This document shows positions 1,390-36,726 of a stretch of DNA of 64,000 nt, piece after piece. This DNA is from Candidatus Puniceispirillales bacterium. Its GTDB lineage: Bacteria > Pseudomonadota > Alphaproteobacteria > Puniceispirillales > GCA-002684695. Positions within the stretch are counted from its first letter, which is position 1, and each line of letters starts with the position of its first letter. The stretch covers positions 46,960-110,959 of the forward strand of contig JBJLFF010000019.1 in NCBI GenBank assembly GCA_045565515.1, written 5' to 3'. A program made the position numbers and the translations under genes. Under the pieces are notes generated by a model that was given only the letters and a program-made list of their open reading frames with translations, ran no database searches and had not been told where the DNA came from.

Positions 1390-1409
1390 GACTTCAAAAC
1401 TTTCATAAA

Positions 1410-2603: not shown

Positions 2604-2624
2604 ATTCAAATAGCTCCATTAATT

Positions 2625-18924: not shown

Positions 18925-20478
18925 ATGATTACAGAAGTAAAAAGAAGAAATAAAAGAAAAAATCATCAGGATGATTTCAAGCAAATTGATCCAGTTATCT
19001 CAAAAGGTATGGAAGGTGGTAATTACAAACCATTAAGTGATAACGATATAAAAAAAATATATTCAACTGCATTAGAAGTATTAGAAAACTTAGGCGTTGG
19101 AAACCCATTGCCAGAACTATTAGATGCTGCAATTAATCAAGGTTGTAAAGTTAATGATGAAGGCAGGTTATGTTTTCCAAAGTCATTAGTAGAGGATGTA
19201 ATCAGTAGGGCAGGAAGGAACTTTACTTTATATGGGAGAGATCCAAAATATGACATTGAGCTTTCTGGAAATAAAGTCAATTTATTTGGAGCTGGTGAGG
19301 CAGTTTCAGTATTAGATTTGGGAGCAAATAAGTATCGCCCTTCAACTATCAACGATGTTTATGATATTGCTAGGATGGTCGACTATTTAGATAATATTCA
19401 TAGCTATTCCAGATTTGTGGTTCCAACAGAATTAAGTGAAGATTTATTGGTTGCTGACATTAACACAGCTTATGCAAGTTTAATGGGCACACAAAAGCAT
19501 ACGGCCCTTACATTTTCGGATGGAAAAAATGTTAAACCGACACTTGAAATGCTAGATATAATTGCAGGGGGAGAAGGAGAGTTTATAAAAAGACCATTTT
19601 GTCATGGAGGTGGCTGTACTATCGTTTCACCTTTACAATATGGAACTGATAATTGCGAAGTGGCTCTAGCATCATTACAATTAAATGCTCCAATTTGGGT
19701 TGTAATAGCACCTCAATCTGGAGCCACGGCACCTGCAGCTCTTGCAGGGTGTTTAGTACAGGCTTTAGCAGAGACTTTGGCGAGTCTTTTACTTATAGAT
19801 CTTATTAAACCAGGGCATCCTGTTATTTTTGGCCCTTGGCCTTTTGTTACAGACTTAAGAACAGGTGCTTTTTCTGGTGGTGGAGGTGAAGAAGCAATTA
19901 TGAGTGCAGCTTCAGCACAAATTACTAATTATTGCGGATTAGTTAGTTCAGTAGGTGCTGGTATGACTGATGCTAAAAGTCCTGATGCTCAGGCAGGTTA
20001 CGAAAAAGGTATTTCAATAGTGATGGCAGCATTAGCTGGTTGTAATAATGTCTCTGAATCTTCTGGAATGATGGCAAGTTTAATGGGATGCTCTTATGAG
20101 TCTCTTGTTATTGATAATGAAATGCTAGGTATGGTAATGAGAGTTGTTCGGGGTATTGAAGTCAACGATGATACTTTGTCTTATGACGTTATTAAGAAAA
20201 CTATTAAGGGTGAGGGGCACTTTTTAAGATCATCTCAAACATTGTCTCTCATGAAAACAGAGTATTTATATCCAGAATTAGCAGATAGATCTAGGCAAGA
20301 AGAATGGGAAGTTGAGGGTTCACCAGATATGAGAAAAAGAGCTGAACTTCATGCAAGAAAAATCTTAAACTCACATTATCCAGTTTATATAGATGATGAA
20401 ACTGATAAAAAAATTCGCGATAGATTCCCCATAAAAATAACAAAAAATATCATTAAACCTGATGCTAATAGGTTTTAA
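18925..20478 (+). CDS. MttB-superfamily (trimethylamine methyltransferase-like) protein, non-pyrrolysine type
   Basis: 517 aa. N-terminal pattern PLSDNDIKKIYSTALEVLENLGV is typical of the MttB family. The frame is uninterrupted, with no in-frame TAG. Confidence 0.75.
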   Translation: MITEVKRRNKRKNHQDDFKQIDPVISKGMEGGNYKPLSDNDIKKIYSTALEVLENLGVGNPLPELLDAAINQGCKVNDEGRLCFPKSLVEDVISRAGRNFTLYGRDPKYDIELSGNKVNLFGAGEAVSVLDLGANKYRPSTINDVYDIARMVDYLDNIHSYSRFVVPTELSEDLLVADINTAYASLMGTQKHTALTFSDGKNVKPTLEMLDIIAGGEGEFIKRPFCHGGGCTIVSPLQYGTDNCEVALASLQLNAPIWVVIAPQSGATAPAALAGCLVQALAETLASLLLIDLIKPGHPVIFGPWPFVTDLRTGAFSGGGGEEAIMSAASAQITNYCGLVSSVGAGMTDAKSPDAQAGYEKGISIVMAALAGCNNVSESSGMMASLMGCSYESLVIDNEMLGMVMRVVRGIEVNDDTLSYDVIKKTIKGEGHFLRSSQTLSLMKTEYLYPELADRSRQEEWEVEGSPDMRKRAELHARKILNSHYPVYIDDETDKKIRDRFPIKITKNIIKPDANRF

Positions 20479-21265: not shown

Positions 21266-23056
21266 CTAATAAACTCTTGCTACAGGTGCAATACTTTGCA
21301 CCTCATTGGTTAATGTTGATAATTTTACGTCTCTGTATCCCAGTTTAGACTTATTCTTCTCATCAAGCCACATGACTGTATGCTTCATCCAGTTTTTATC
21401 ATCACGTTCTGGATAATCTTCATGCGCATGTGCGCCTCTCGATTCCTGTCTCTCATTGGCAGAGCGTATTGTCACCAGTGCCTGACCCAACAGATTATCA
21501 AGCTCTAACGTTTCAACCAGATCTGTATTCCAAATCAGCGATGTATCCTGCAGACGAACATTTTGCATATCCATTGCAATATCACCTAACTTCCTCACAC
21601 CTTCATCAAGTACTTCTGTGTTACGGAACACAGCAGCATGTCTTTGCATAGCCTTTTGCATATCCAGTCTTAACTCAGCTGTTGAGACATCACCTTTTGA
21701 ATGACGGATACGATTAAAACGGTCTAATATTTTTTGTGTAGCTGATTCGGCTAGAGGCGGTAGAGACTCACCCGGCTTCATTGTCTCTGAAGCACGCTGT
21801 GCAGCAGCACGTCCAAATACAACAATATCTAATAAAGAGTTTGTTCCCAAACGGTTGGCTCCATGGACAGACACACAAGCAGCTTCTCCAATTGCCATCA
21901 GACCAGGTGCTGTACGGTCAGGATCTTTAGCTGTTGGTGACAGAACCTCACCATGGTAATTGGTTGGAATACCTCCCATGTTATAATGTACTGTTGGAAG
22001 CACTGGAATCGGTGCCCGTGTCACATCCACACCACAGAAGATCTTTGCTGTCTCTGTAATGCCTGGTAATTGCTTATGCAATGTCTCTGGATCGATATGT
22101 TCAAGATGAAGCATGATATGATCATTATCATTACCGACACCACGTCCTTCGTTGATCTCAACTGTCATGGCACGACTGACAACATCTCGGCTTGCAAGGT
22201 CTTTGGCTGTTGGAGCATAACGCTCCATAAAGCGCTCACCTTCTGAGTTGGTTAGATACCCTCCTTCACCTCTGGCACCTTCTGTAATTAGAACACCCGC
22301 ACCATAGACACCTGTTGGATGGAACTGGACAAACTCCATATCCTGAAGAGGCAGACCTGCCCTTAATACCATGGCATTACCATCACCTGTACAGGTATGT
22401 GCTGATGTACATGAGAAGTAAACACGGCCATAACCACCTGTTGCTAAAACAGTCTTCTGGGCACGAAAGCGGTGAAGGGTACCATCTTCCATACATAAAG
22501 CCAGGACACCGCAGCATCTGCCTTCATCATCCATGAGTAGATCAAGGGCAAAATACTCGATAAAAAACTCTGCCTTATACTTCAGGCACTGCTGATACAA
22601 CGTATGAAGGATGGCATGACCTGTCCTGTCTGCCGCAGCGCACCCACGTCGCGCCATAGCCTTGCCCTGTTCGAGGGTATGGCCACCAAATGGTCTTTGA
22701 TAGATCTTGCCTTCTTCTGTCCTTGAGAAAGGCACACCATAATGTTCAAGCTCGATCACTGATGGAATGGCATTCTTGCACATATACTCAATTGCATCCT
22801 GATCACCCAGCCAGTCAGATCCCTTGACCGTATCATACATATGATACTGCCAACTATCATTATCTCCCATATTGCCTAATGCAGCACTAATACCGCCCTG
22901 AGCAGCAACAGTATGTGATCGTGTTGGAAAGACTTTAGTGATGCAGGCTGTCTTAAAGCCTTCTGCTGTCATGCCTAACGTTGCACGAAGACCGGCACCA
23001 CCTGCACCCACAACCAAAACATCATACTCGTGATCTGTTATAGGATAACTCGTCAT
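21266..23056 (-). CDS. sdhA: succinate dehydrogenase flavoprotein subunit
   Basis: 596 aa. [11 protein letters not shown] dinucleotide fold and covalent-FAD histidine block [10 protein letters not shown]. Followed by sdhB. Composition is anomalous (see findings). Confidence 0.95.
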
Positions 23057-23178
23057 AAAGAACTCTAAAATTTGATTTAATTATATATAATATAAATATT
23101 ACAATACAAAATAACAAAAATATGTTTATTTTTTTTATATATGGTTTAATTAAAGTTCATTTGGGTAGGAAAAATTAT

Positions 23179-24219
23179 ATGAAATTTCAGCTAGCGGTAA
23201 ATCTTGAACGACAATCTTCTCACCAAGATATGAAGACTGTCGCAGATCATACTTTAGAAATGGTTAAAAAAGCTGATAAAGGTGGTTTTAATATTGTTTG
23301 GTCTGCAGAACATCATGCATTAGAAATGACCATAGCACCTGACCCATTTCAACTTCTTACATGGTGGGCGACACACACTGAAAAAATTAGATTAGGAACA
23401 GCTGTTGCTGCAGCTCCATATTGGCACCCTATAAAATTAGCTGGTGAAGCTGCTATGACAGATTTAATTTCTAATGGCAGGTTAGAATTTGGAATAGGCT
23501 CTGGGGCATATCAAAGAGAGTTTGATCGTATGTTTCCAGGTTTGAAACAATCAGATGCATGGAAATTCATGCAAGAGTCACTGCCAGCAATTAAAGCATT
23601 GTGGAAAGGCGACTATGAACATAAGGGAGAGTTTTGGTCATTTCCAATGTCAACCTCTGTTCCTAAACCAATTCAAGATCCTCATCCACCAATATGGGTT
23701 GCAGCTAGAGCTCCTATTACATATGATTTTGCTGTTGAACATGAATGTAATATAATGTCTTGGCCTCTTACAAGACCAATGTCTGAAGCAGAGCTATATA
23801 AATCCAGACTAGATGAGGCGATGAAAAAGTTTCCAAATAAACCTAAGCCAATATTTTCTATGATGAGACATACAGCTGTTTATGAAAATAAACAAGATTG
23901 GGAAATTCCTGTAAAGGCCCTAACAAAAGTCCTTGGGCAATTTGAAAATTTATTTAAAAATCTTGGTGATGTAGAAAATGGCTTTACAAAAGTTATACCT
24001 TTAAATGAATTAGAAGATAGAGAACAATACAACCCAAAAATGTTAGATGAAAATTTGATGTTTGGTACCCCAGAAGAAATTATAAAAAAATTAAAGTTAT
24101 ATGAAAAATTGGGTGTTGATGAATTTATATATTATGCAACATTTGGTTTGGGGCATGAAGAACAACAAAAATCGATAGATTTATTTATCTCCGAAGTAAT
24201 GCCAGAGTTTCTGAATTAA
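23179..24219 (+). CDS. luciferase-like (LLM class) flavin-dependent oxidoreductase
   Basis: Starts MKFQLAVNLE. Contains the FNIVWSAEHHALE block typical of LLM enzymes. The track start at 23122 adds a hydrophobic 19-aa extension with no family precedent. I prefer the ATG at 23179, which has an AGGA upstream. Confidence 0.8.
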   Translation: MKFQLAVNLERQSSHQDMKTVADHTLEMVKKADKGGFNIVWSAEHHALEMTIAPDPFQLLTWWATHTEKIRLGTAVAAAPYWHPIKLAGEAAMTDLISNGRLEFGIGSGAYQREFDRMFPGLKQSDAWKFMQESLPAIKALWKGDYEHKGEFWSFPMSTSVPKPIQDPHPPIWVAARAPITYDFAVEHECNIMSWPLTRPMSEAELYKSRLDEAMKKFPNKPKPIFSMMRHTAVYENKQDWEIPVKALTKVLGQFENLFKNLGDVENGFTKVIPLNELEDREQYNPKMLDENLMFGTPEEIIKKLKLYEKLGVDEFIYYATFGLGHEEQQKSIDLFISEVMPEFLN

Positions 24220-24239
24220 ATAATTAGAGTATTAATGAT

Positions 24240-25400
24240 ATGCTGATGACACAAAATCATGAACAAGAATTATTAGAAAAAACAGTAAAAAGATTCGTAG
24301 AGGAAGAATTATACCCACACGAAGAAACTGTTGATACAAATGGCGAAGTCCCTATTGATCTTGGTAGGCAAATAGAAAAAAGATCAAAAGAAGTAGGACT
24401 TTTTGCTGCTAACTTGCCATCTAATGTTGGCGGCGGTGGATTAGATTATGAAAGCATGCATCTAATTGAACGTGAATATGGTAAAACAAGTCATGCCCTC
24501 CATGCATGGGCAGCCAGACCAACCGAAATTCTATTAGCGTGTGAAGATGACCAAATAAAAAACTATTTAGACCCCTGTGTTACTGGTGAGAAAAGAGAGT
24601 TATTTGCTTTAACAGAACCAGAAGCAGGTTCTGACATAATGTCCATGAAAAGTAATGCTAGAAAAGATGGAGACGACTGGATCCTGAATGGGTCAAAGCA
24701 CTTCATATCTGGTCCTGTAATGCCAGATTTTGCAATAGTATTCGCTTCTACTGGAGAAGATGAAACACCTAGAGGTAAAAGGAAAAGAATTACTGCATTT
24801 TTAGTTGATGTTGGTGAAAAAGGATTTGAAATAGGAGTTGGATCAAAGTGTGTTAGTTACAGGGGGCACCATGCATTCAGATTAAATTTTTCAGACGTTC
24901 GTTTAGGTCCTAATCAAATTTTAGGGGAAGAAGGAAAAGGACTAGAGCTATCTGGCAAGTGGCTTGGAATGGGAAGGATTTGGGTTGGAGCTTCATGTTG
25001 TGGCAAAGCAGAAAGATTGTTTGAGTTAGCAAAGGATTGGGCTGCATCAAGAAAGCAATTTGGTCAACCAATTGGTAAGTTCCAAGCAACAGGATTTAAA
25101 TTAGCAGACATCGCTATAGAATTAAGAGCGGCAGATCTTTTAGTGAAAGATGCAGTGAAAAGAGCAAACGAAGGACAAATGTCCGATGCAGATGCCGCTA
25201 TGGTAAAAGTTTTTTGTTCTGAAATGCTTAATAAAGCTGCTGATAGTACTGTTCAGCTTTATGGTGGAATGGGCTTAATGGAAGAATTACCAATTCAAAG
25301 ACTATGGAGAGATTCTCGACTTGAAAGAATATGGGACGGAACCTCTGAAATACAAAGGCATATTATCACACGGTCTATTTTAAGACCCTTAGGTGCATGA
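24240..25400 (+). CDS. acyl-CoA dehydrogenase family protein
   Basis: 386 aa. LTEPEAGSD block and C-terminal IWDGTSEIQRHII (catalytic Glu region). Confidence 0.88.
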   Translation: MLMTQNHEQELLEKTVKRFVEEELYPHEETVDTNGEVPIDLGRQIEKRSKEVGLFAANLPSNVGGGGLDYESMHLIEREYGKTSHALHAWAARPTEILLACEDDQIKNYLDPCVTGEKRELFALTEPEAGSDIMSMKSNARKDGDDWILNGSKHFISGPVMPDFAIVFASTGEDETPRGKRKRITAFLVDVGEKGFEIGVGSKCVSYRGHHAFRLNFSDVRLGPNQILGEEGKGLELSGKWLGMGRIWVGASCCGKAERLFELAKDWAASRKQFGQPIGKFQATGFKLADIAIELRAADLLVKDAVKRANEGQMSDADAAMVKVFCSEMLNKAADSTVQLYGGMGLMEELPIQRLWRDSRLERIWDGTSEIQRHIITRSILRPLGA

Positions 25401-27499
25401 GAACCAATCAACTAAACAACCTTAACAGACTATTTAATCCAAAGAATATAGCAGTTTTTGGCGGTAACGATGCTGAAATAGTTATTTCTCAATGTAAAAA
25501 AATGGGGTTTAAAGGTGAAATTTGGCCTGTAAATCCAAAAAGGGATTTAATTAATGGAATTAAATGTTTCTCTTCTGTAAATGACCTTCCAAAAGGACCC
25601 GATGCTTCATTTATAGCAGTTCCAAGACAACCAGCAATTGAAATAGTTAAACAATTAAATGAAATGAATTCTGGCGGTGGTGTATGCTATACAGCTGGAT
25701 TTAGAGAGGTTGGAGAAGAAGGCTCAAAGCTTGAAAAAGAACTTTTAGACAATGTTGGTGACTTTGCATTAATTGGCCCAAATTGTTATGGAATGATAAA
25801 TTATGTTAATAAAATAGCTCTTTGGCCTTTTGACCACGGAGGTAATTTCCCAGGTTTTGGTGCAGCAGTTATTACTCAAAGTGGAATGCTTTCAAATGAC
25901 CTTTCCACTAGTCGTAGATCAATGCCTTTTGCATATATGGTGTCAGCTGGAAACCAGTCTGTTTTATCAATAGAAGACTATGTAGATTTTTTTTCTCAAA
26001 AAGAAGAAGTTAAAGCCATTGGTCTTCATATAGAAGGCCTCCAAGACATAGAAAAATTTCAAAGAGGCTGCTTAAAGGCATTAGAAAGAAAAGTACCCAT
26101 CGTCGCAATTAAAACTGGTTCATCAACCATAGGTAATAATCTTGTAAGCAGTCATACCGGATCGCTATCAGGGACAGATGAAATATATAACTCATTATTT
26201 GATCATTTAGGTATAATAAGAGTAACAAACCCACATGAATTTTTGGAAACGCTAAAGTTTTTATGTATTTCTGGTCCAGTTTCTGGAAAAAGAGTTGCTG
26301 CATTTACTTGCTCTGGTGGAGGCGCCACAATGCTTGCAGATTATGCTGAAAAAATTAATTTAGAATTTAATCAACCATCAAAAAAAGTAGATTGTGAACT
26401 AAAAAAATTACTTCCTTTAACAGCTACCGTTTCTAATCCTTTAGATTATACTACACCAATATGGGGGCAGCCTGAGAAAACAGGCCCTGTTTTTAACACG
26501 TTTTTTAAAGATAAATATGATTGTGCCATTTTAGTCCAAGATTATTTACCACCAGGAATTAATGAGCTTAATAAGTATTATTTATATGATGCAAAAGCTT
26601 TTTTTGAAGCTTCTCAAAAACTTAAATTACCTTCTATAATTTGTAGTACTGTCCCAGAAAATAATGATCCAGAAATATCTGATTTTTTTGTTAGCAATAA
26701 GGTTACTCCATTACAAGGATTAGAGGAAGCACTGAATGCTGTGAAACGAAGTTACAAATTTAATCAACGATATAAAGATTACCTTGATGGCAAAGTCTTT
26801 GTTAAAAAATCTATCACAAATTCTTTAAAAAATCCTTTGATGCTAAATGAAATTGAGTCGAAATCAATTCTTAAAAAAATTGGTTTGAGAATACCAAGTT
26901 TTTTGAACGGGAAAAATTATTTAAATGCAAATAATTCTAATGATCAAAACTTTAAATTAAATTTTCCAGTTTGCGCAAAAATGGTTAGTAATGATGTTGA
27001 ACATAAAACTGATATAGGTGCAATACAGTTAAATATTAATAGTTTAAATGAACTTAATTTAGCTCTTAAAAAAATAGAAATTAACGTCAAAAATGCTAAA
27101 ATAAGTTTTACAGATGATTTTCTTGTCGAAGAAATGCAGCCTAGTCCACTAGGAGAGCTTTTAGTTGGTATATTTTATGACCAACAATTTGGATATGTAA
27201 TGACGATAGCTTCTGGTGGTATACTAGCTAACCTATTGGAGGATTCGATTTCTATTTTACTTCCAGCATCTTCAGATGAAATAGATAGTTCTTTAAAAAA
27301 ATTAAAAATTAATAAGTTATTTTCTGGTTACCGAGGGAAAAAAGAAATTAATAGGAAATTACTTTTAAAAAACTTAAAAAAACTTTCTGATTTTGTAATT
27401 GACCCAAATAATAAAATTCAACAATTAGAAATAAACCCGTTATTTGTTTTTGAAGAAAACAATGTAGCTGTTGATGCCATTATTTGGAAATCTAAATGA
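25397..27499 (+). CDS. ADP-forming acyl-CoA synthetase (fused alpha/beta, acetate--CoA ligase family)
   Basis: 700 aa. CoA-binding start NPKNIAVFGGND, SucD-like IGPNCYG, phosphohistidine block SSHTGSLSG and a C-terminal ATP-grasp half. ATGA overlaps on both sides. Confidence 0.85.
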   Translation: MRTNQLNNLNRLFNPKNIAVFGGNDAEIVISQCKKMGFKGEIWPVNPKRDLINGIKCFSSVNDLPKGPDASFIAVPRQPAIEIVKQLNEMNSGGGVCYTAGFREVGEEGSKLEKELLDNVGDFALIGPNCYGMINYVNKIALWPFDHGGNFPGFGAAVITQSGMLSNDLSTSRRSMPFAYMVSAGNQSVLSIEDYVDFFSQKEEVKAIGLHIEGLQDIEKFQRGCLKALERKVPIVAIKTGSSTIGNNLVSSHTGSLSGTDEIYNSLFDHLGIIRVTNPHEFLETLKFLCISGPVSGKRVAAFTCSGGGATMLADYAEKINLEFNQPSKKVDCELKKLLPLTATVSNPLDYTTPIWGQPEKTGPVFNTFFKDKYDCAILVQDYLPPGINELNKYYLYDAKAFFEASQKLKLPSIICSTVPENNDPEISDFFVSNKVTPLQGLEEALNAVKRSYKFNQRYKDYLDGKVFVKKSITNSLKNPLMLNEIESKSILKKIGLRIPSFLNGKNYLNANNSNDQNFKLNFPVCAKMVSNDVEHKTDIGAIQLNINSLNELNLALKKIEINVKNAKISFTDDFLVEEMQPSPLGELLVGIFYDQQFGYVMTIASGGILANLLEDSISILLPASSDEIDSSLKKLKINKLFSGYRGKKEINRKLLLKNLKKLSDFVIDPNNKIQQLEINPLFVFEENNVAVDAIIWKSK

Positions 27500-28902
27500 C
27501 CTTAATTCACCGTCTATTTCTATTCATTATTTTTATATTATTTCCGGTCATTTCTTTTGCGCATGTTTCAGAAAGAGCTTTAATTCTTTTACTTCCAACA
27601 GAATTTTATATTCCAGCTGGTATTTCAGTTTTAATACTCACGATTTTAATAGCTTATTTAACTCCAGTCTCATTCATAACATCTCTTTTCAAATCTCATG
27701 AATTGAAAATTAATTTTAATAAATATATTTCTATAAACCAACTTGAAAATTTGAAAATTTTTACGAGCTGTGTAAGTTTTTTATTTTTGATAATTTTAAT
27801 AATTTTTGGGTTTATAGGCTCCAGAGACCCACTAGCAAATCCTTTATCCCTATTTATTTGGTCAGTTTGGTTTATGGTAATGCCTGTAATTCAGATTCTG
27901 TTAGGTAACGCTTGGGCATTTTTAAATCCTTGGTATGGAATAGGAAAATTATTTTTTAAAGATAAGAAAGTCTATAAATTAAATAGTAATTACTCGCTTA
28001 TATTTTCGTCAGCAGGATTTTTACTTTTTTCAATGTTTATGTTAGTGGACATTGCTCCTGATGACCCTGACAGGCTTGCAAATATTGTAACTCTATACTT
28101 TTTAATAAATCTTTTGTTTGTAAAGATTTTTGGTGTCAATTGGCTTGAAAAGGGTGAATGTTTTACCGCATTTTATGGATTACTGTCTAAATTGTCATGG
28201 ATTTGGATAATGGAAGGCAAAATTCATATTGGTTTTTTTGGTTCTCAACTTAAAAAAATTAAAACGTTTCCTTCTTTGTCTGTTTTGTTTTTATCAATAA
28301 TTTTAGCAACATTATCTTTTGATGGATTAAATGAAACATTTCTTTGGTTCAAGGTAATTGATGTAAACCCTTTAGAGTTTCACGGAAGATCATCAGTTAT
28401 TATTGAGAACTCCTTTGGTTTAATTTTTTTTGCGGTAATGTTATTTTTTATATTTTCAATAACTATATTTTTAGGTCATAAATTTATAAATGAAAGAGTA
28501 CCTTTTAAAGAAATCATAGGCATCAACTCCATTGCACTTCTACCGATCGCTCTTGCTTATCATATAGCTCATTATTTGACATCATTTTTGGTAAACATAC
28601 AATATTCATATAAAGTAGCTTCTGACCCTCTAAACAATGGCAAAGACTTTTTTAATATAGGTGATTTTAATGTTACCACTAGTTTTTTTAATACTATTGA
28701 AACAGTTAAACTAATTTGGTTTATTCAAGCATCAGCAATTGTCATAGGGCATGTCATAGCTGTTTTGTTGGCTCATTCAATTTGTGAGGGATATCTAAAA
28801 AAGAAATCGTCTATATTAATCAGTCAATTCCCAATTAGTATATTTATGATTTGTTATACTTTTCTTGGATTATGGATACTATCAACGCCAACAGTCGGAT
28901 AA
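27496..28902 (+). CDS. polytopic membrane protein of unknown function
   Basis: 468 aa with roughly 10-12 hydrophobic segments. N-terminal signal-like segment ends VISFA/HVSE. Paired His residues sit in late helices (AYHIAHYL, IGHVIAVLLAH). Translationally coupled (ATGA) to the synthetase gene. Confidence 0.7.
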   Translation: MTLIHRLFLFIIFILFPVISFAHVSERALILLLPTEFYIPAGISVLILTILIAYLTPVSFITSLFKSHELKINFNKYISINQLENLKIFTSCVSFLFLIILIIFGFIGSRDPLANPLSLFIWSVWFMVMPVIQILLGNAWAFLNPWYGIGKLFFKDKKVYKLNSNYSLIFSSAGFLLFSMFMLVDIAPDDPDRLANIVTLYFLINLLFVKIFGVNWLEKGECFTAFYGLLSKLSWIWIMEGKIHIGFFGSQLKKIKTFPSLSVLFLSIILATLSFDGLNETFLWFKVIDVNPLEFHGRSSVIIENSFGLIFFAVMLFFIFSITIFLGHKFINERVPFKEIIGINSIALLPIALAYHIAHYLTSFLVNIQYSYKVASDPLNNGKDFFNIGDFNVTTSFFNTIETVKLIWFIQASAIVIGHVIAVLLAHSICEGYLKKKSSILISQFPISIFMICYTFLGLWILSTPTVG

Positions 28903-28997
28903 ATTGGAATATCTATTATAACTAGACATTAGAGCAAATTTGAATCTATAGTTATTAATATAACTGATAATCGTAATTTTAATTATGGGGCAGGTAA

Positions 28998-30284
28998 ATG
29001 AAAAAAATAATAAAAAATAATATTTCTAGAAGAAAATTAATGAAAGGTGTAGCAGCTGCAGGAAGTGTAGCAGCAATGCCTGGATTTGTAAGATACAGTC
29101 AAGCGGCAAGTTCAGAGCCGATTAAGATTGGATTTCAAGTTCACAGAACTGGGATTGGAGCTGCCTACGGAAGGTGGTATGATAGAACAACTCAAGCTGC
29201 TGTAAAAGTTATTAATGATGCAGGCGGCATTAATGGCCGACCAGTTGAAGTTGTTGCTGAAGATGATGGAACTGATCCAAAAAGAGGCGCAGAAGCGCTT
29301 GAAAAATTTGCAAACCAGCATAGCTGTGATGTTGCGTTTGGAACTCTTTTTTCTCATGTTGTAATCGGTTCTGCGCCTAGAGCAGGGGAATTAAAGCTTC
29401 CATATTTTGTTGTATCTGAAGGGCACCATGTAGCTTCAGGCATGCTTAATAGATATACATTACAACCTGGCATTACTGATGTTAAAAGCCAAGTTCAAGC
29501 AATGGCTCCTTTTGTAAAAGAAAATTTAGGTAAGAAAGTTACTATGGTATACCCAGACTTTGCTTTTGGTCATGATCATAGAGATTATTTTTCAGCTGCT
29601 TTTGAGGCTCAAGGTGGGCAAATCATTGCCAAAGTTCCAATTCCACCAACAGAATCTAGTTTTTCAAAATATTTCCCTAAAATTCCAAGAGATACAGAAG
29701 TATTATATCACGTGATGGTTGGGCCAGCTGTTTTAACTTTTGTTAAAGAGCTTGGTGAATTCTATGGATCAAAAAGTCCAAAACTATTTGGATTTATTGA
29801 TAGCGTTGAAGCTGTAGATTTAAGCACTCCAGGACTAGAGTTCCTAGATGGCAGTTATTTTTGGGAAGGAAATCCAAGGTACGCTCAGGCAAACCAAAGT
29901 GATCATGATAAATTTTACAGAGCAGCTATTGGCGTAGATGCTAATGGTGCCTCTGCATCTGACCCTAAAGATGTTTCAACGTATGCTCATATGTTTGGAT
30001 GCTGGGAAACACTCCATATTATTAAAAAAGGTATGGAGGAATCAGGTTACTCTGGAGTTGGTGACAGGGCTAAATTAATTGAAGCTGTTGAAAGTATGAG
30101 TGATATGCCATTATCTCAGGCTCACCCTCAGGGAGCTAAAATATTTAATGGTAAAACTCACCAAACATTTGGTCATCAATATATAACTAAAATGACTAAT
30201 GGAAAGTTAGTTCTAGCGCATACGACATCAATTGAGGATACCTTCTATCCTGATGAAGTTGATTACACTAAACAATCATTTTAG
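28998..30284 (+). CDS. ABC transporter substrate-binding protein (Leu/Ile/Val-binding, type-1 PBP family) with Tat-like signal
   Basis: 428 aa. N-terminus NISRRKLMKGVAAAGSVAAMPG matches the twin-arginine pattern. IKIGFQVHRTGIGAAYG is typical of LivK-like SBPs. Followed by livHMGF. Confidence 0.85.
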   Translation: MKKIIKNNISRRKLMKGVAAAGSVAAMPGFVRYSQAASSEPIKIGFQVHRTGIGAAYGRWYDRTTQAAVKVINDAGGINGRPVEVVAEDDGTDPKRGAEALEKFANQHSCDVAFGTLFSHVVIGSAPRAGELKLPYFVVSEGHHVASGMLNRYTLQPGITDVKSQVQAMAPFVKENLGKKVTMVYPDFAFGHDHRDYFSAAFEAQGGQIIAKVPIPPTESSFSKYFPKIPRDTEVLYHVMVGPAVLTFVKELGEFYGSKSPKLFGFIDSVEAVDLSTPGLEFLDGSYFWEGNPRYAQANQSDHDKFYRAAIGVDANGASASDPKDVSTYAHMFGCWETLHIIKKGMEESGYSGVGDRAKLIEAVESMSDMPLSQAHPQGAKIFNGKTHQTFGHQYITKMTNGKLVLAHTTSIEDTFYPDEVDYTKQSF

Positions 30285-30305
30285 TTTAAATTGACTTAAA
30301 ACAAC

Positions 30306-31187
30306 ATGGATTTAGGGCCTTATCTACTTTTTGCTTCATTAGAAGGCCTTGTCCATGCAGCTGTACTATCTCTCATTGCTCTGGGATTAAGTTTAGTATT
30401 TGGAGTAATGAGAATAGTAAATGTTGCACATGGTGAGTTTTTTATGCTTGGCGCTATACTGGCGTGGTGGGTATCAAGCTTTGCTTTAGGAAATCCAGCA
30501 ATAGGTTTTTTATTAGCATTATTAATAGCTCCTTTGATTGCTGGTATTATTGCAATGTTTTCAGACTGGTTGATTTTGAAACGTTTAAAATACGATCCTG
30601 AAGCTACAATTATAGCAACAATTGGAATTTTATATATTATTCAACAAGCTGCTTTAATGACTTTTGGACCTGATGCAAGACCAGTTGAACAACCATTTAA
30701 TATAAGATTAGATCTGTATTGGTTTGGATTTTCGGCATATAAGTTTTTTGTTATTTTTGCTGCCATAGTTCTGTTATTAGGTGTTTGGCTGGTTATGGCT
30801 AAAACTAAGTTTGGTCTTCTTTTAAGAGCTACGCAATTAGACAGTGAAACAGCTCAAGCTTTTGGAATACCTATTTCAACTGTATATAGCCTTGTTTTTG
30901 GTGCTGGTGCGGCTATAGCTGCAGTTGGTGCTGTTCTCATAGTTCCAATTCAGCAAGCGCATTATTTAATGGGAGGAGAACCATTACTTCTAGCCTTTAT
31001 TGTAGTTATTATCGGTGGCTTAGGAAGCCTAAGAGGAACTGTTGCTGCTGCTGTTCTTATAGGTATGAGTGATGGTATAATATCAGTTTTTTTCTCTCCA
31101 AATTTAGCAAAAATATTAGCAACTTTATTAGTTGTATTTGTTTTATTAATAAAGCCTAACGGATTATTTGGAACAGCTAAAGCATGA
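30306..31187 (+). CDS. livH: branched-chain amino acid-type ABC permease
   Basis: 293-aa hydrophobic protein. LSLVFGVMRIVNVAHGEFFMLGA is typical of the LivH family. Confidence 0.88.
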   Translation: MDLGPYLLFASLEGLVHAAVLSLIALGLSLVFGVMRIVNVAHGEFFMLGAILAWWVSSFALGNPAIGFLLALLIAPLIAGIIAMFSDWLILKRLKYDPEATIIATIGILYIIQQAALMTFGPDARPVEQPFNIRLDLYWFGFSAYKFFVIFAAIVLLLGVWLVMAKTKFGLLLRATQLDSETAQAFGIPISTVYSLVFGAGAAIAAVGAVLIVPIQQAHYLMGGEPLLLAFIVVIIGGLGSLRGTVAAAVLIGMSDGIISVFFSPNLAKILATLLVVFVLLIKPNGLFGTAKA

Positions 31188-32125
31188 GAAAAGATATACT
31201 TCTACATTTAGGAGCTTTGGCAATACTTCTATTGCTTGAATTGCTAGGAATTTTTTCAGATTACCATCAAGGTAATTTTGCAAGAATATTAGTATTAGCA
31301 GCTTATGGTATTGGCTATAACGTTTTATTTGGTTACACTGGTCTTTTAAGTTTAGGGCATGCACTTTTTTTCTCAGCAGGACTGTACGCATCTGGCCTAT
31401 CAATTTACCACTTAGATTATAATGTTGGGCAATCATTAATATTAGCAATTTTCATTTCTGCTTTTGTCTCACTGGTGATTGGATATCTTGCTCTTAGAAC
31501 GGTTGGTGTGTCCTTTATGATTGTAACTCTCATGTTCTCACAAGTTGCCTATTTATGTATTTTGTATTTTGGAGGTGTTACGAGAGGTGACGAAGGTATT
31601 GTCATACAACAGTCAAGCAGAGTTTTTCTTTCCTTGGATTTATCTAATCCTACTATACGATACTATTCAGCTTTAATAGTATTTTCTTTATGCTTAATTA
31701 TTAACCTATGGATTGCAAAAAGTTCATTTGGCAGAGTTTTGATTGCGATTAGGGAAAACAGTGATAGAGCTCTAATGCTTGGTTATAACGTACATTTATA
31801 TAAGTTATTTTCTGTTATCATTTCAGGAACTATCTCTGGTTTAGCAGGAGCCTGTTACGGTATTTTATTTGGTTATGTAGGGGCAAGTTTTGCAGCAGTA
31901 CCATACTCAATATTTCCACTTTTATGGGTTTTAATTGGTGGTGCTGGAACTGTTTTGGGACCACTAGTAGGAGCAATTTTTATGTTTTATCTAATTGATT
32001 ATGCAAGCGATATCACGGATGCTTACATGATAATAGTTGGAATTACACTTTTGATGGTAACTTTATTTGCAAGACGTGGTTTACTAGGTGAATTAAGGTA
32101 TAGGTATTTTAAATGGATACCATAG
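31184..32125 (+). CDS. livM: branched-chain amino acid-type ABC permease
   Basis: 313 aa. YNVLFGYTGLLSLGHALFFSAG is typical of the LivM family. ATGA overlap with livH. Confidence 0.88.
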   Translation: MRKDILLHLGALAILLLLELLGIFSDYHQGNFARILVLAAYGIGYNVLFGYTGLLSLGHALFFSAGLYASGLSIYHLDYNVGQSLILAIFISAFVSLVIGYLALRTVGVSFMIVTLMFSQVAYLCILYFGGVTRGDEGIVIQQSSRVFLSLDLSNPTIRYYSALIVFSLCLIINLWIAKSSFGRVLIAIRENSDRALMLGYNVHLYKLFSVIISGTISGLAGACYGILFGYVGASFAAVPYSIFPLLWVLIGGAGTVLGPLVGAIFMFYLIDYASDITDAYMIIVGITLLMVTLFARRGLLGELRYRYFKWIP

Positions 32126-32829
32126 ACAATATTCTCCTTTACACAGAAAACATAAGTAAAAATTTCCAAGGTATTAAAGCTGTAAATAATGTAAACTTCA
32201 AAATAAATAAAAATGAAATAAGAGCTTTAATTGGACCTAATGGAGCAGGCAAAACAACTTTTGTTTCATTACTTTGCGGAAGGATTAAAGCTTCTAAAGG
32301 GAAAGTGGTTTTTGGTGGAAAGGATATTTCTGATTTTCCTGTCTATAAAAGAATTTCAAATGGAATAGGCTATACTTTTCAAATTACATCAATTTTTTTT
32401 AATTTAACTGTTTACGAAAATGTTGCCTTAGCTATTAAAAAAGATAATTCAAATGAGAAAATAAATACAGTCTCTGAAGTTCTAACTAAAGTTGGGCTTT
32501 TGGATAGGATCAATCAAAGAAGTGGAGACTTAAGTTATGGTCACCAAAGACTTCTTGAATTAGCGATGGGGATGGCTCAAAAGCCAAAGTTACTAATTTT
32601 AGACGAGCCAACACAAGGATTATCAGATTCAGAAATTGAAAATTTTAAAAAATTAATAAAAGATATTTCTTCATCGACAACTATACTATTAATCGAACAT
32701 AATATGGATGTTGTGATGTCTATAGCAGATAATATTTCAGTTCTTCATTTTGGTGAAATAATTGCTGAAGGTGATAAAAAGACTATTCAAAATGACCCTA
32801 TTGTTCAAAAAGCTTATCTGGGGGATTGA
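32113..32829 (+). CDS. livG: ABC transporter ATP-binding protein
   Basis: 238 aa. Walker A GPNGAGKTT, signature LSYGHQRLLE and Walker B LLILDEP. Confidence 0.9.
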   Translation: MDTIDNILLYTENISKNFQGIKAVNNVNFKINKNEIRALIGPNGAGKTTFVSLLCGRIKASKGKVVFGGKDISDFPVYKRISNGIGYTFQITSIFFNLTVYENVALAIKKDNSNEKINTVSEVLTKVGLLDRINQRSGDLSYGHQRLLELAMGMAQKPKLLILDEPTQGLSDSEIENFKKLIKDISSSTTILLIEHNMDVVMSIADNISVLHFGEIIAEGDKKTIQNDPIVQKAYLGD

Positions 32830-33524
32830 TGCTAACTGTTCAAAACCTGACATCATATTATTCTAATATAAAAATACTCAAAGATCTCACATTTAGTTTA
32901 CGAAAAGGTAAGGTAACATGTCTTCTTGGGAGGAATGGCGCTGGCAAAACAACAACACTCAAATCAATAATGGGTTTAGTTGATAAAACTGAAGGATTAA
33001 TATCCTTTAATGATGAAACAATATCAAAAATTTCACCCCATCATATACCTAAAAAAGGGATCGGATACGTTCCTCAAGGTAGAAGGCTTTTCTCAGAATT
33101 AACTGTTGAAGAAAATTTGGAAATAGGTCTTTTAACAAGAAGAAAAAGTGAGGTTACAAAAAATAATGTTTTAACTATGTTTCCTAAGTTAAAGGAAAGG
33201 CTAGATCAAATTTCTGGAACATTATCAGGTGGTGAACAGCAAATGTTGGCTTTGGCTAGGGCACTTTGTATTGAGCCTACTTTATTACTACTAGACGAAC
33301 CTACTGAGGGCCTTCAACCCTCTATGATTTCTCTGATTAGAAACAGTATTTTAGAATTAAAAAAACAAGGTGTTTCTATCCTTCTAGTCGAACAAAGAGT
33401 TGACGCTATTTTATCTATTGCTGATGAAATTTTGGTTATTGAAAATGGGTCTATAATTTTTTCAGCTGATGCAAAAGAAGTACAAAATGACAATAAAAAA
33501 TTATATAGTTTAATAGGTATTTAA
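32829..33524 (+). CDS. livF: ABC transporter ATP-binding protein
   Basis: Walker A GRNGAGKTT, signature LSGGEQQMLA and Walker B LLLLDEP. The ATG at 32829 overlaps the livG TGA. The track start at 32826 is TTG. Confidence 0.9.
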   Translation: MLTVQNLTSYYSNIKILKDLTFSLRKGKVTCLLGRNGAGKTTTLKSIMGLVDKTEGLISFNDETISKISPHHIPKKGIGYVPQGRRLFSELTVEENLEIGLLTRRKSEVTKNNVLTMFPKLKERLDQISGTLSGGEQQMLALARALCIEPTLLLLDEPTEGLQPSMISLIRNSILELKKQGVSILLVEQRVDAILSIADEILVIENGSIIFSADAKEVQNDNKKLYSLIGI

Positions 33525-33526
33525 AA

Positions 33527-34198
33527 TTATAATTCAGAAGTAGATAATAATTTAACCCCTTTACCTTTCATATCGTTTAAAGAATTTTCAAGTGAATTGT
33601 TTAAATCAATTGCTCTACATGCGTTCTTTATTACAGTAACATCGTAACCTAGCTTTGCTCCATCAATAGCAGAAAAATAAACACAGAAATCCAACGCCAA
33701 GCCACAAAGGTAAATTTTATTAATTCCCCTTGATTTTAAGTACCCATCTAAGCCAGTTGGTGTTTTTTGGTCGTTTTCAAAGAATGCTGAATAACTATCA
33801 ATTTCAGGCCTAAAACCTTTTCTGATTATAAGGTCTGCATTATCAGTAATTAATTTTGTATGAAATTTAGAACCTTCAGTCCCTTGTATACAATGATCTG
33901 GCCATAGAACTTGCTTGCCGTAGAACATTTCAACCATTGAAAGTGGGTCTTTACCATCGTGATTAGATGCAAATGATTTATGTGTATTAGGATGCCAGTC
34001 CTGAGTTATAATTTTTATTTTGAACTGCTCTTGAATTTTATTTGCAATTTCAACTACCTCGTCACCTTGATTTACTGCTAAGGCCCCACCAGGACAAAAA
34101 TCATTTTGAATGTCAATTAATACTAATGCTGTATCTTCACCAAAATTACTCATCATTAATTTACCTAAAGAATTTATATTTAATTTATAATTCAACAT
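33527..34198 (-). CDS. pncA: nicotinamidase/pyrazinamidase (isochorismatase family)
   Basis: ALVLIDIQNDF start block, DWHPNTHKSF metal site and catalytic Cys block LCGLALDFCV. The start may instead be the ATG at 34156 (MMSNFGED), which has AGGT upstream. Confidence 0.85.
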   Translation of the reverse strand: MLNYKLNINSLGKLMMSNFGEDTALVLIDIQNDFCPGGALAVNQGDEVVEIANKIQEQFKIKIITQDWHPNTHKSFASNHDGKDPLSMVEMFYGKQVLWPDHCIQGTEGSKFHTKLITDNADLIIRKGFRPEIDSYSAFFENDQKTPTGLDGYLKSRGINKIYLCGLALDFCVYFSAIDGAKLGYDVTVIKNACRAIDLNNSLENSLNDMKGKGVKLLSTSEL

Positions 34199-34282
34199 AT
34201 TTTTTTTAAAATATAGTTTTAATTTTATTTTAGTATTAAAATTATCTTGAAAGATTGGATTTAATATTTAACAGGCATACTT

Positions 34283-35108
34283 ATGGTTGAAGAAAAAATT
34301 AAATCAATGAAGTTATATAACTTTATTGACCGTGTATATAATGAGCTTAAAGAATTAGGTAAAGAAATTGAAGGAGATTTATCAATTGATGAATTGTCTT
34401 CATTTGATCAATTACATTACCATGGCACCGAATCTATTGATTTTACTATAGAAAAGCTAGGTATAAATAGTAACTCAAGAGTTTTAGAAATTGGCTCTGG
34501 TATTGGTGGGCCCTCAAGATATTTAGCCCAAGCAACTGGTGCAAAAGTAACAGCTCTAGAACTTCAAGAAGATCATCATCTAGTTGGAATAGATTTAACT
34601 AAAAGATGTGGGTTGGAAAATAATGTTGAGCATTTATGTGGTGATTTTTTAGACATGTCTTTGCCAGCTGAAAATTATGATGCAATTGTGAGTTGGCTCG
34701 CTCTATATCATATACCTGATAGAGATAAATTATTAGAATCATGTTTAAAAATTCTTAAGCCTAATGGTTATTTTTTTTGCTGAAGATTTTGCTTGTCATC
34801 AACCTTTTAGTGATGGCGAAAAGTCTGAGCTTTCAAAAGATTTTTTTGCTAATTATATTGTTAGTTACTCTGATTATAATTCTGATCTTATCAAAGCAGG
34901 ATTTTCAGAAATTGTTTCAGATGATATGACAATAAGCTGGAGTGATTTTACTAAATCAAGGCATAAAGCCTATAAAGATAATATTGCTAGGCACACAAGA
35001 GTTCATAATGAAACTGTAGTTGAAAATATGCTATATTTTTACAACTTTGCCATGAGGTATTTAGATGGTGGTAAACTTGGTGGAATTAGAATATATGCTA
35101 AAAAATAG
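34283..35108 (+). pseudogene. class I SAM-dependent methyltransferase interrupted by a 1-nt frameshift in a T8 tract
   Basis: The two track ORFs 34283-34783 and 34764-35108 are consecutive parts of one protein. Motif I is VLEIGSGIGGPSRYLA. Removing one T from 34771-34778 joins ...LKILKPNGYFF to AEDFACHQPF... Confidence 0.8.
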
Positions 35109-35129: not shown

Positions 35130-36614
35130 TTAGCGCATCTGAAATGGGTTTGACATAGGCTCATCAGATGTATTAATCCAAACTGTTTTGATGCGTGTAT
35201 AATCATGAATTGCCTGCATTCCGCTTTCTCTACCATAACCAGAGTCCTTATAACCCCCAAAAGGTGCAATTGGAGAGACAACTCTGTATGTATTAACCCA
35301 AACAATTCCAGCTCTAAGCGCTTTAGTGACCCTTAATGAACGAGCACCATTTTTTGTAAAAACTCCTGCAGCTAAACCATATTTTGTATCATTAGCTAGT
35401 TTAATAACTTCTTCTTCACTCTTAAATCTTATTACACTCAGGACTGGACCAAATAGTTCCGTATCTACTATTTTTAATTTTTGATCGTGGCAATCAACAA
35501 TAGTTGGTTCATAAAACCAGCCTCCATTCGGATTTGAAGGTCTTTTTCCTCCATGTAAAATTTTAGCACCCTGAGCCTTAGCATTAGAAATTTCATTTTC
35601 AATCAAATTCATTTGACCTAAAGTAGCTAATGGGCCCATTTGCGTTTCTTCTTGAAGAGGGTCACCTAATTTGATTTTTGAAGCCAAATTGAGCATTTTA
35701 TCTAGAAATTCATCAGCAATACTCTCATGTAAGTATAGCCTAGAACCTGCTACACAGCTTTGTCCACTTGCTCCAAATATTCCAGCAATGGATCCATTCA
35801 CAGCACTTTCAATGTCGGCATCATCAAAGACAATAAAAGGTGACTTTCCTCCAAGTTCTAGAGAAACTTCTGCAAAATTTTCAGCTGAGTTTCTTATTAC
35901 ATGTCTTGCTGTAGATGGTCCCCCCGTAAAACTAATCCTGTGTACTAATGGATGAGTTGTAAGAGTTTTTCCACATGGATCTCCATGACCAGAGATAATG
36001 TTTACAACTCCCGGAGGGAAACCTGCTTCCTCTATAACTTTCCCAAATTCCAGCATTGCTGCTGATGCATGTTCTGATGCTTTTAAAACAACAGTATTCC
36101 CAGCAGCTAGTGCAGGACCTATTTTCACAGCAACTAAAAATAATTGTGAATTCCACGGTACAATTGCAGCAATCACCCCTAAAGGTTCTCTTACATTGAA
36201 TGCGTACATGTCTGGTTTGTCTATTGGAAGTGTGGCTCCTTCTATCTTATCAGCTAAACCTGCATAATAATGAAAGTATTCTGCAATATATTTTGCCTGC
36301 CATCTTGTTTCTTTTAATAACTTTCCGGTATCAATAGATTCTATTTTACCTAATTCTTCAGATTTATTAGCTAGAAGGTCACCTAATTTTCTTAAATATT
36401 TACCTCTTTGGGTTGGAGTAATTTTAGACCACTCACCTTCACTGAATGCATTATACGCAGATTCTACAGCTTTGTTTACATCTGAAGCTGATGCTTCTGG
36501 TATAAGCGCCCATGGTTTTCCTATGCTTGGATTTATACTTTCAAAAGTTTCACTTTTTTCACTTCCAATCCATTCACCATTTACAAACATTTTGTAAGTT
36601 TCAAGATTACCCAT
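35130..36614 (-). CDS. NAD(P)-dependent aldehyde dehydrogenase
   Basis: 494 aa. ELGGKSP block and catalytic Cys block GQSCVAGSRLY. Confidence 0.92.
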   Translation of the reverse strand: MGNLETYKMFVNGEWIGSEKSETFESINPSIGKPWALIPEASASDVNKAVESAYNAFSEGEWSKITPTQRGKYLRKLGDLLANKSEELGKIESIDTGKLLKETRWQAKYIAEYFHYYAGLADKIEGATLPIDKPDMYAFNVREPLGVIAAIVPWNSQLFLVAVKIGPALAAGNTVVLKASEHASAAMLEFGKVIEEAGFPPGVVNIISGHGDPCGKTLTTHPLVHRISFTGGPSTARHVIRNSAENFAEVSLELGGKSPFIVFDDADIESAVNGSIAGIFGASGQSCVAGSRLYLHESIADEFLDKMLNLASKIKLGDPLQEETQMGPLATLGQMNLIENEISNAKAQGAKILHGGKRPSNPNGGWFYEPTIVDCHDQKLKIVDTELFGPVLSVIRFKSEEEVIKLANDTKYGLAAGVFTKNGARSLRVTKALRAGIVWVNTYRVVSPIAPFGGYKDSGYGRESGMQAIHDYTRIKTVWINTSDEPMSNPFQMR

Positions 36615-36726
36615 TATAAATCACCTATACTTTAAATTTTTATTCTTACATATTCAGCATGATTTTTATTCCACGTCAAATAACTTAAGTATATAAATGA
36701 AAGAAGTATTTTGGAGAAAATGTTTA

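Follow-up and report, generated by a model that had tools for sequence, protein, structure and literature searches.

The region at 23179-34198 of a 64,000-nucleotide stretch of DNA (the window) from Candidatus Puniceispirillales bacterium, contig JBJLFF010000019.1, was analyzed, with a membrane protein designated X as the main subject. On the plus strand, the region carried the genes of a luciferase-like flavin/F420-class oxidoreductase (LLM; 23179..24219, alternative start 23122), an acyl-CoA dehydrogenase (ACAD; 24240..25400), a 700-aa ADP-forming (NDP-forming) acyl-CoA synthetase (ACD; 25397..27499), and X, a 468-aa polytopic inner-membrane protein (27496..28902). The genes that followed on the same strand encoded a periplasmic binding protein (SBP) of the LIV/cluster-B type, urea/amide branch, with a twin-arginine translocation (Tat) signal (28998..30284); two permeases, UrtB-like (30306-31187) and UrtC-like (31184-32125); and two ATPases of the ATP-binding cassette (ABC) type, UrtD-like (32113-32829) and UrtE-like (32826-33524). 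The nicotinamidase/pyrazinamidase gene pncA (33527..34198) lay on the minus strand, convergent with the ABC operon. Unlike X, the transporter genes, PncA, LLM, ACAD, and ACD are unexceptional members of known families. The constant partner of X is the downstream SBP/ABC importer, not the upstream acyl-CoA enzymes.

The LLM-ACAD junction was a 20-nt gap (24219 to 24240) in the open reading frame (ORF) listing. The ACAD-ACD junction at 25397 and the ACD-X junction at 27496 were both ATGA stop/start overlaps, where the DNA reads GGTGCATGAGAACC and TCTAAATGACCTTA, respectively. An earlier account made from the letters of the window (the sequence-only reading) had described four plus-strand genes with a 20-nt gap and two ATGA overlaps, and this was borne out by the ORF list and by reading the DNA. 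It had also reported no regulator, and the products scanned at 23179-34198 likewise showed no regulator domain. No riboswitch was detected by Rfam in 22900-34400.

The neighbourhoods of distant X homologues were viewed, and 80 genome loci were then scored by tblastn with the window proteins. The synteny counts given here refer to 82 non-redundant loci, with smaller denominators for the loci that had enough sequence. The SBP gene was directly downstream of X on the same strand in 77/77 testable loci, and the full ABC set (both permeases and both ATPases) followed X in 61/66 loci. The search was also carried out from the side of the SBP. X was present on all 12 plasmids carrying an SBP of at least 60% identity, placed upstream, divergently, or last in the operon, and when one abundant marine SBP sequence was taken as the starting point, each of the 6 distinct places recovered had a 460-aa X homologue directly upstream. 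The SBP was 72–80% identical between loci where X was 37–43% identical. Whichever of the two is searched from, X and this SBP orthologue group occur strictly together, also where the gene order is rearranged.

The upstream genes showed a different pattern. ACD adjoined X in 4/82 loci, all of them from the closest SAR116-like relatives (L005, L009, L010, and L011), with tight junctions of 0 to −10 nt. LLM copies of 84–91% identity were found in L005, L009, and L010 only, and the SAR116-like clade was the only one in which LLM adjoined the X module. Loci L012-L015, whose X is 69% identical, kept the X-ABC-PncA arrangement without LLM, ACAD, or ACD. Apart from the ACD cases, the upstream neighbours of X were unrelated or divergent. 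Because ACD was found beside X in 4/82 loci against 77/77 for the SBP, and because the X-SBP link runs both ways, the ATGA coupling of X to ACD is a lineage-specific local fusion of two units.

These results bear on the model of the sequence-only reading, in which X was the dedicated membrane component of an organic-acid activation and oxidation pathway formed by LLM, ACAD, and ACD, strictly coupled to the synthetase, with the ABC importer as a supplier of substrate. The ATGA overlap in the window and the tight junctions in four close relatives are in its favor. The model is contradicted by the absence of ACD from 78/82 loci, including those with 69% identical X, and by the otherwise unrelated or divergent upstream neighbours, and it is extremely unlikely. 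The coupling to the synthetase is therefore not strict, and the importer is the conserved partner of X rather than a mere supplier. Since ACD is lineage-specific and the ABC set is conserved, the organic-acid pathway was the wrong frame for X. That reading had named two observations that would count against it: a match of X to a known transporter family with variable histidines, which was not seen, and an ACD-X pair that is not syntenic elsewhere, which was found.

None of LLM, ACAD, and ACD passed the cut-off of a substrate-specific NCBIfam equivalog. LLM matched Pfam Bac_luciferase (4e-52), and none of the NCBIfam subfamilies reached its cut-off. ACAD, four-domain, matched Pfam Acyl-CoA_dh_N/M/1, and its best NCBIfam matches (acryloyl-, glutaryl-, and crotonobetainyl-CoA types) were all below cut-off. 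ACD carried CoA_binding_2, Succ_CoA_lig, and ATP-grasp_5 (PF13380, PF13607, and PF13549) in a single chain, which places it among the ADP-forming synthetases. In L005-L007, with X 54% identical, genes for an enoyl-CoA hydratase, a 3-hydroxyacyl-CoA dehydrogenase, and a beta-keto acid cleavage enzyme (BKACE) were located between LLM and ACAD (1239-3934). The upstream operon is itself variable, since the window (24219-24240) lacks these three genes.

X matched no family of Pfam or NCBIfam and no PDB sequence. Pfam searches at E ≤ 1 with 54 X members gave scattered chance matches only, a 54-sequence profile found nothing among PDB sequences, and the AlphaFold2 (AF2) model of X had no match in the PDB by Foldseek (best TM 0.23). 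X was thus placed in no curated family or solved fold, in agreement with the sequence-only reading, which had recognized no family for it. More than 1,600 relatives were found at 90%-identity clustering, all unnamed and without Pfam domains, and 1,994 among 50%-identity cluster representatives. In a one-genome-per-species scan, at least 577 places were confirmed by tblastn, among the 599 matched stretches listed. X is not a chance ORF, because of these more than 1,600 homologues and 1,994 clusters and because of its conserved histidines. None of the relatives examined is annotated with a family or a function, and the X family appears undescribed.

On reading the sequence, X has a hydrophobic N-terminus ending VISFA/HVSE, followed by about 10 more hydrophobic segments. 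The AF2 model (predicted local distance difference test, pLDDT, 88.9; pTM 0.86) showed ten long helices, with residues 19–28, at pLDDT <50, as its sole uncertain part. X is accordingly predicted to consist of a cleavable signal peptide and 10 transmembrane (TM) helices in the inner membrane. The predicted signal peptide (residues 1–22, ending S-F-A) and the His23 codon (27562-27564) occupy 27496..27564 on the plus strand. Residue −1 to His23 was A, G, or S in 258/261 relatives, and residue −3 was A, V, S, T, or G in 251/261. The median length upstream of His23 was 27 residues, with a hydrophobic core (h-region) in 229/244. The signal peptidase I site is of the canonical AxA form, and therefore His23 would be the first residue of mature X, as the sequence-only reading had proposed.

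The conservation of X residues was investigated in 54 sequences, down to 39% identity, and in 273 sequences including a second clade at about 30% identity. H23, H356, H359, H419, and H427 were invariant in the 54 sequences. In the 273 sequences, H23 was conserved in 96%, H356 in 97%, H359 in 99%, H419 in 99%, and H427 in 96%. The two helices with paired histidines seen by the sequence-only reading (AYHIAHYL and IGHVIAVLLAH) therefore stood up well, with all of its histidines conserved at 96–99%. The codons of H356 and H359 (YHIAHY motif, mid TM8, model helix 337–376) are at 28561..28572, and those of H419 to H427 (GHVIAVLLAH motif, TM9, model helix 401–433) are at 28750..28776, both on the plus strand. 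M451, Y454, T455, D276, Q369, D377, E221, and an N-P motif were kept at 92–99% in the same set, with the TM10 residues M451, Y454, and T455 at 97–98%.

The four invariant intramembrane histidines could also be those of a transmembrane redox protein with heme b or copper, linking the quinone pool or a cytoplasmic reductase to a periplasmic partner; this is the membrane redox component of the sequence-only reading. Partners of X relatives elsewhere resemble carriers or redox enzymes (cupredoxin-like proteins, DyP, and high-potential iron-sulfur protein), and a ferredoxin-NADP reductase (Fpr) gene adjoins X in Neorhizobium and is present in 4/82 loci. In bis-heme helices, however, the histidine pairs are roughly 13 residues apart. 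The spacings in X are 3 (H356/H359) and 8 (H419/H427), near the mid-membrane or the cytoplasmic half, and no profile or fold match to the bis-heme class was found, nor any match to the cytochrome b, FRD, or NnrS families. Furthermore, Fpr is rare and is found together with 6-hydroxynicotinate reductase, an enzyme that requires reduced ferredoxin. The SBP, the invariant partner, is not a redox protein. A redox role of X is therefore quite unlikely. Of the earlier suggestion that X ligates metal or heme, the metal part remains plausible and two hemes are unlikely. A split NOX-like system of Fpr and X was also considered and rejected, as Fpr is rare (4/82 and the Neorhizobium plasmid) and goes with the gene for 6-hydroxynicotinate reductase.

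The SBP (28998-30284) matched PF13458 (Peripla_BP_6; 1.4e-46) and PF13433 (1e-13), which identifies it as a cluster-B periplasmic binding protein. With two permeases and two ATPases in one operon, whose orthologues carry PF02653 and PF00005, the layout was that of the HAAT family. The identity of the LIV-type ABC genes at 28998-33524 was as the sequence-only reading had given it. The best NCBIfam matches were to UrtB (7e-53), UrtC (4e-34), UrtD (1e-68), and UrtE (3e-75), and all scores were below the equivalog cut-offs: 180 vs. 250 bits for UrtB, 119 vs. 296 for UrtC, 231 vs. 304 for UrtD, and 253 vs. 286 for UrtE. The SBP scored 40–66 bits vs. about 493, so the five genes do not form a UrtABCDE system by these models. 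Similarity of the SBP to urea-binding SBPs and to AmiC was weak and below cut-offs, and the closest solved SBPs were remote (E 1e-12), being aromatic-acid and amide binders.

A Tat-type RR motif was found in at least 77/88 SBP orthologues. The SBP is rich in conserved histidines: H49, H120, H144, H194, H238, H331, H388, and H408 were at least 97% conserved in 85 orthologues, and H143, H376, and H393 reached the same level in a 16-sequence set, making eleven in all. The AF2 model of the SBP came from a shallow alignment and had a pLDDT of 47, and no ligand was deduced from it. One exact SBP sequence was indexed in 683 blocks of the collection searched, and the SBP is very common in marine metagenomes.

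The 95-nt spacer between X and the SBP contained a CTAGACA element with a promoter-like site (28922..28952, plus strand) that was invariant in 6 low-GC relatives. The site, TAGACA-18-TATAGT, matched 10/12 consensus positions, with CTAGACA supplying the −35-like half, and was overlapped by an imperfect 13-nt inverted repeat (28918-28930 / 28943-28955). No terminator-like site was found between X and the SBP. Promoter- and terminator-like sites were no more frequent in the region than in shuffles. The conserved element suggests a candidate internal promoter or operator for the SBP/ABC genes, and because of it the transporter genes may also have a promoter of their own. As a side observation, genes for a DUF2306 protein and a LytTR-domain regulator were inserted between the SBP and the permeases in one Rhodobacteraceae lineage (L008 / L016 12834-14279).

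The ligand of the module was considered from its gene context. PncA (33527-34198, minus strand) is of the isochorismatase family and scored 222 bits with NF008623, whose cut-off is 174, identifying it as a nicotinamidase/pyrazinamidase. It was at the same convergent position in 15/66 loci, from SAR116-like, other marine alphaproteobacterial, and Rhizobiaceae lineages. Nicotinate-catabolism genes were beside the orthologous module in 34/82 loci, and PncA or a nicotinate-catabolism gene was present in 42/82. The gene types were 6-hydroxynicotinate reductase, Fer2-Mo hydroxylase with its FAD subunit, enamidase-like amidohydrolase, and hydantoinase A/B, and the clusters further contained UPF0280 and AA_synth proteins and MarR. 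In the annotation of Sulfitobacter mediterraneus P3, 6-hydroxynicotinate reductase, a molybdopterin oxidoreductase, and an FAD-binding subunit are followed by PCu(A)C and then by X and the ABC genes; in that of Neorhizobium pNCHU2750a, the order is nicA, nicB, fpr, X, livKHMGF, MarR, hnr, and hyuA. Given this nicotinate/PncA context, and with the transporter in the urea/amide branch of HAAT proteins, the pyridine carboxamide nicotinamide and/or the carboxylate nicotinate are the most likely compounds to be imported by the module. A literature search for a known ABC transporter of nicotinate or nicotinamide, and for any account of the X family, returned only one passing prediction, a "putative nicotinate ABC transporter" named in 2012 in nic clusters of the Azorhizobium/Bradyrhizobium type (PMC3511419).

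Hydantoinase A/B genes (HyuA/HyuB-type, ATP-dependent lactamase family) were found in 26/82 loci, e.g., L001, L003, L058, L088, and L095, and several hydantoinase loci had no enamidase-like gene within 10 kb. Hydantoinase A/B may replace enamidase in opening the ring of tetrahydro-6-oxonicotinate.

Downstream of PncA, the window carried genes for an aldehyde dehydrogenase (ALDH; 35130-36614, minus strand) and, on the plus strand, for a RidA-like protein (36697-37113), an alpha/beta hydrolase (37119-37913), a flavin reductase (37941-38870), and an AA_synth protein (38873-39475). The same set follows the X-ABC-PncA module in L005, L009, and L010. It resembles the homarine operon homABCD, described in 2026 from SAR11, SAR116, and Rhodobacterales, in which HomA supplies flavin and adjoins HomB, HomC is termed a "peptidase," and HomD is ALDH-like (PMC13236597); the likeness is by description, and the genes are possible orthologues of SPO3188-3191. 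Between PncA and this set, a methyltransferase dependent on S-adenosylmethionine (34283-35108) was split into two ORFs of 166 and 114 aa that overlap by 20 nt. In L005-L007, the orthologue is encoded in one piece (275 aa), and the split is probably a frameshift, from a sequencing error or in a pseudogene.

The neighbours of X relatives also included genes linked to metals. A PCuAC-like gene was divergent from X in 26/82 loci, for example in nicotinate clusters on the minus strand at L001 9171-9962, L092 8147-8905, L058 9101-9853, and L003 9131-9910. Its C-terminal domain, which is unannotated, has four invariant histidines (GHAHLY...NDHR). PCuAC-like genes were seen to head operons with hydantoinase A/B or nicotinate hydroxylase.

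In the second X clade (clade B, about 30% identity), no SBP was found, and the X-like gene was translationally coupled to that of a small secreted protein with the motif [IL]HLHGY...GRFP..H and weak cupredoxin matches. This clade-B partner had no BLAST similarity to the PCuAC-like protein. It belongs to an unannotated family of small secreted proteins or lipoproteins (HxHGY partners) with the motif HxHGY ... GRFP..H and weak Cupredoxin_1 matches. The partner genes are at L089 7628-8053, L090 7648-8004, L091 2127-2498, L094 6313-6669, L103 5060-5497, and L104 4877-5368, and the coupling spans Alpha- and Betaproteobacteria and Actinobacteria. As a further observation, a non-pyrrolysine MttB-family methyltransferase gene of the quaternary-amine demethylase type is present in the window at 18925-20478, beside sdhAB and upstream of the operon, and a second MttB gene is near the clade-B X-like gene in L090.

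Two loci of remote X relatives adjoin copper monooxygenase genes. On a plasmid of Mycobacterium dioxanotrophicus (L104), the order is sigC, the small lipoprotein (HVHVHGY), X-like, a zf-HC2 anti-sigma factor, and pmoCAB. On pMYCCH.01 of Mycolicibacterium chubuense NBB4 (L103), the X-like gene lies between hmoCAB with sigC and a soluble monooxygenase. In both, the run of sigC, lipoprotein, X-like, and zf-HC2 anti-sigma genes directly adjoins the copper monooxygenase genes. In M. tuberculosis, SigC is the sigma factor for copper starvation (PMC7924339), and a review has treated sigC beside copper monooxygenase genes as a possible hydrocarbon regulator (PMC8784404). For the run of sigC, lipoprotein, and X-like genes, a role in copper supply seems at least as likely as hydrocarbon regulation. 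Further remote contexts were those of Haloferax, Haloarcula, Haladaptatus, and Halobacterium, where X-like genes neighbour P19-like Tat proteins, DyP-like proteins, P-type heavy-metal ATPases, and NosD, and that of Pseudonocardia, with a galactose-oxidase-like gene nearby.

Histidine-brace copper sites, as in CopC, lytic polysaccharide monooxygenases, and PmoB, are marked by an N-terminal histidine that is set free when the signal peptide is cut, with copper coordinated by the N-terminal amine and imidazole and by a second histidine. In X, this feature is predicted from the AxA/H site in 96–99% of the 261 relatives. Several periplasmic cuproproteins, such as NosZ and CueO, are exported by the Tat pathway and acquire their copper afterwards. 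Because remote X-like genes adjoin HxHGY, P19-like, PCuAC-like, P-type ATPase, and copper-monooxygenase/sigC genes, X would bind a metal, most likely copper, with iron as the less probable choice. The predicted topology places conserved His, Met, Tyr, and Gln residues at different membrane depths on TM8–TM10, which would suit the passage of a metal ion.

Taken together, the results pointed to a six-gene uptake module, probably for nicotinamide and/or nicotinate, in which X comes first, followed by the Tat-exported LIV/Urt-type SBP, two permeases, and two ATPases. In the SAR116-like lineage, the module has been fused head-to-tail onto the LLM/ACAD/acyl-CoA-synthetase operon. Nicotinamide would be imported and then deamidated by the adjacent PncA. 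The signal peptide of X would be cut, exposing His-1 in the periplasm, and an invariant intramembrane cluster would be formed by H356/H359 on TM8, H419/H427 on TM9, and M451/Y454/T455 on TM10. A metal could be held by the N-terminal amine and imidazole in a histidine-brace-like manner, and passed to or kept at the membrane His/Met site. X may metallate or dock the His-rich SBP, with ligand capture or hand-over depending on X. We favor this reading tentatively; as a whole, with X binding metal and acting with the SBP, its chance of being correct is slightly below even.

Several points weigh against this reading. Regarding the ligand, tblastn found no nicotinate hydroxylase, 6-hydroxynicotinate reductase, or enamidase in the 64 kb of the window, so the locus is not a nicotinate-catabolism cluster. 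As the streamlined genome lacks the hydroxylase and reductase in this stretch, NAD salvage via PncA would be the purpose here. Because the hom-like genes adjoin, homarine or trigonelline (N-methylated pyridine carboxylates) are possible ligands. Regarding copper, the window carries no PCuAC-like gene, small HxHGY partner, or other copper gene, and the N-domain of the PCuAC-like protein is without the canonical Cu(I) ligands (no conserved Met/His). The P19 and DyP neighbours fit iron equally with copper. Archaeal and some actinobacterial X relatives have no N-terminal histidine, and the position of His-1 is not fixed by the AF2 model. No Pfam match to CopD at E ≤ 1 was obtained for any of the 54 X members, and comparison of X with E. 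coli YebZ by hhalign gave a probability of 0.4%, with a single-sequence target that limits sensitivity. To our knowledge, no metabolic step of nicotinate or nicotinamide needs copper. The molybdenum hydroxylase of the nic clusters was considered as a copper-needing enzyme of the Cu-Mo carbon monoxide dehydrogenase (CODH) type and was ruled out, as it has no CODH active-site copper loop.

X could instead be an SBP-dependent translocator, secondary or channel-like and not of the ABC type, for the same organic ligand, with a track of His, Gln, and Tyr that would couple protons or let the ligand through. In five Roseovarius loci, X and the SBP form an isolated pair, with permease and ATPase genes absent within 10 kb; a Variovorax X-like gene follows that of a Bug-type binding protein of the tripartite tricarboxylate transporter (TTT) kind; and the predicted topology distributes the conserved polar residues Q369, H359, H356, H419, H427, Q444, Y454, and T455 over TM8–TM10. 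Set against this, ABC genes accompany X in 61/66 loci, and comparison of N- and C-half profiles revealed no internal repeat of the secondary-carrier type, nor did the fold match a solved transporter. The same invariant residues are kept in relatives with small metal-type partners instead of SBPs, and for this reason they are unlikely to be specific for the organic ligand. Such a translocator is unlikely. Another possibility is that X imports copper or iron in general and stands beside the ABC operon by chance, without a functional tie. The metal-handling neighbours of many kinds across the family agree with this. It is very unlikely given the strict two-way co-occurrence of X and the SBP through rearrangements.

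Returning to the six-gene module, the firm part of the result is an SBP-dependent ABC importer with an unprecedented accessory protein; the X family and its genomic associations are solid, and the mechanism is a proposal. A wider generalization can be made, which is speculative and unlikely to hold: the X family would be an unrecognized class of metal-handling inner-membrane proteins, probably for copper, marked by His-1 freed from the signal peptide and by an intramembrane His/Met site, and always acting with an extracytoplasmic partner. In the present clade the partner would be the Tat-exported, His-rich SBP, and uptake of B3 pyridines in abundant marine bacteria would be metal-assisted, through copper on the SBP ligating the pyridine nitrogen, or X and the SBP would form a translocator distinct from ABC, TRAP, and TTT systems. 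If X handles copper, it would be a new player in bacterial copper acquisition, including that of actinobacterial copper-monooxygenase clusters, and trace-metal supply would be tied to vitamin B3/pyridine uptake in SAR116- and Roseobacter-type bacteria. Apart from the metal hypothesis, the module is a testable candidate nicotinamide/nicotinate importer of marine alphaproteobacteria. The assignment of X to the acyl-CoA genes on the basis of the operon is also corrected.

The X module was compared with known systems. The five genes after X share the architecture of UrtABCDE and LivJHMGF (HAAT family, which also includes the amide sensor AmiC), with best scores against Urt. They differ in that all are below the Urt cut-offs, the context is pncA and nicotinate catabolism rather than urease, and the SBP carries a Tat signal. 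We know of no HAAT system with an obligate sixth gene for a polytopic membrane protein. In gene context, the module is like the nic-cluster transporter of the Azorhizobium/Bradyrhizobium type, an ABC system among genes for nicotinate dehydrogenase, 6-hydroxynicotinate reductase, and enamidase, as in our loci L092, L095, and L002. That transporter was only predicted and never characterized, and the paper mentions no X-like role (PMC3511419).

Metal transporters gave further likenesses. Like the FTR1/EfeU permeases with their P19, EfeO, and EfeB partners, the haloarchaeal X-like genes, at 22–26% identity and in an archaeal context, take the expected place of a permease beside P19-like (PF10634) and DyP-like genes. 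X was not matched by the FTR1 Pfam family, and an REXXE-type motif was not seen on reading X, for which no systematic search was made. In CbiM and NikM, the S-components of energy-coupling factor (ECF) cobalt and nickel transporters, the processed N-terminus (Met-His) and membrane histidines ligate the metal. X is like CbiM/NikM and HupE/UreJ, which are membrane metal transporters, in its membrane histidines and its predicted processing at the N-terminus; no homology was detected, the size and topology differ, and no ECF T-component was found with X.

The CopC/CopD pairs (E. coli YobA/YebZ and B. subtilis YcnJ) were also compared. X differs from CopD in showing no sequence or profile similarity, in having 10 predicted TM helices versus 8, and in carrying His-1 on the membrane protein itself, while its partner in this clade is a LIV-type SBP with an ABC transporter. 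In CopC, the N-terminal histidine exposed by signal-peptide cleavage serves as a copper ligand. Like CopD, X is a His-containing polytopic protein encoded with an extracytoplasmic partner, which in the pairs above is metal-binding, and members of the X family are likewise paired with small secreted HxHGY or PCuAC-like proteins.

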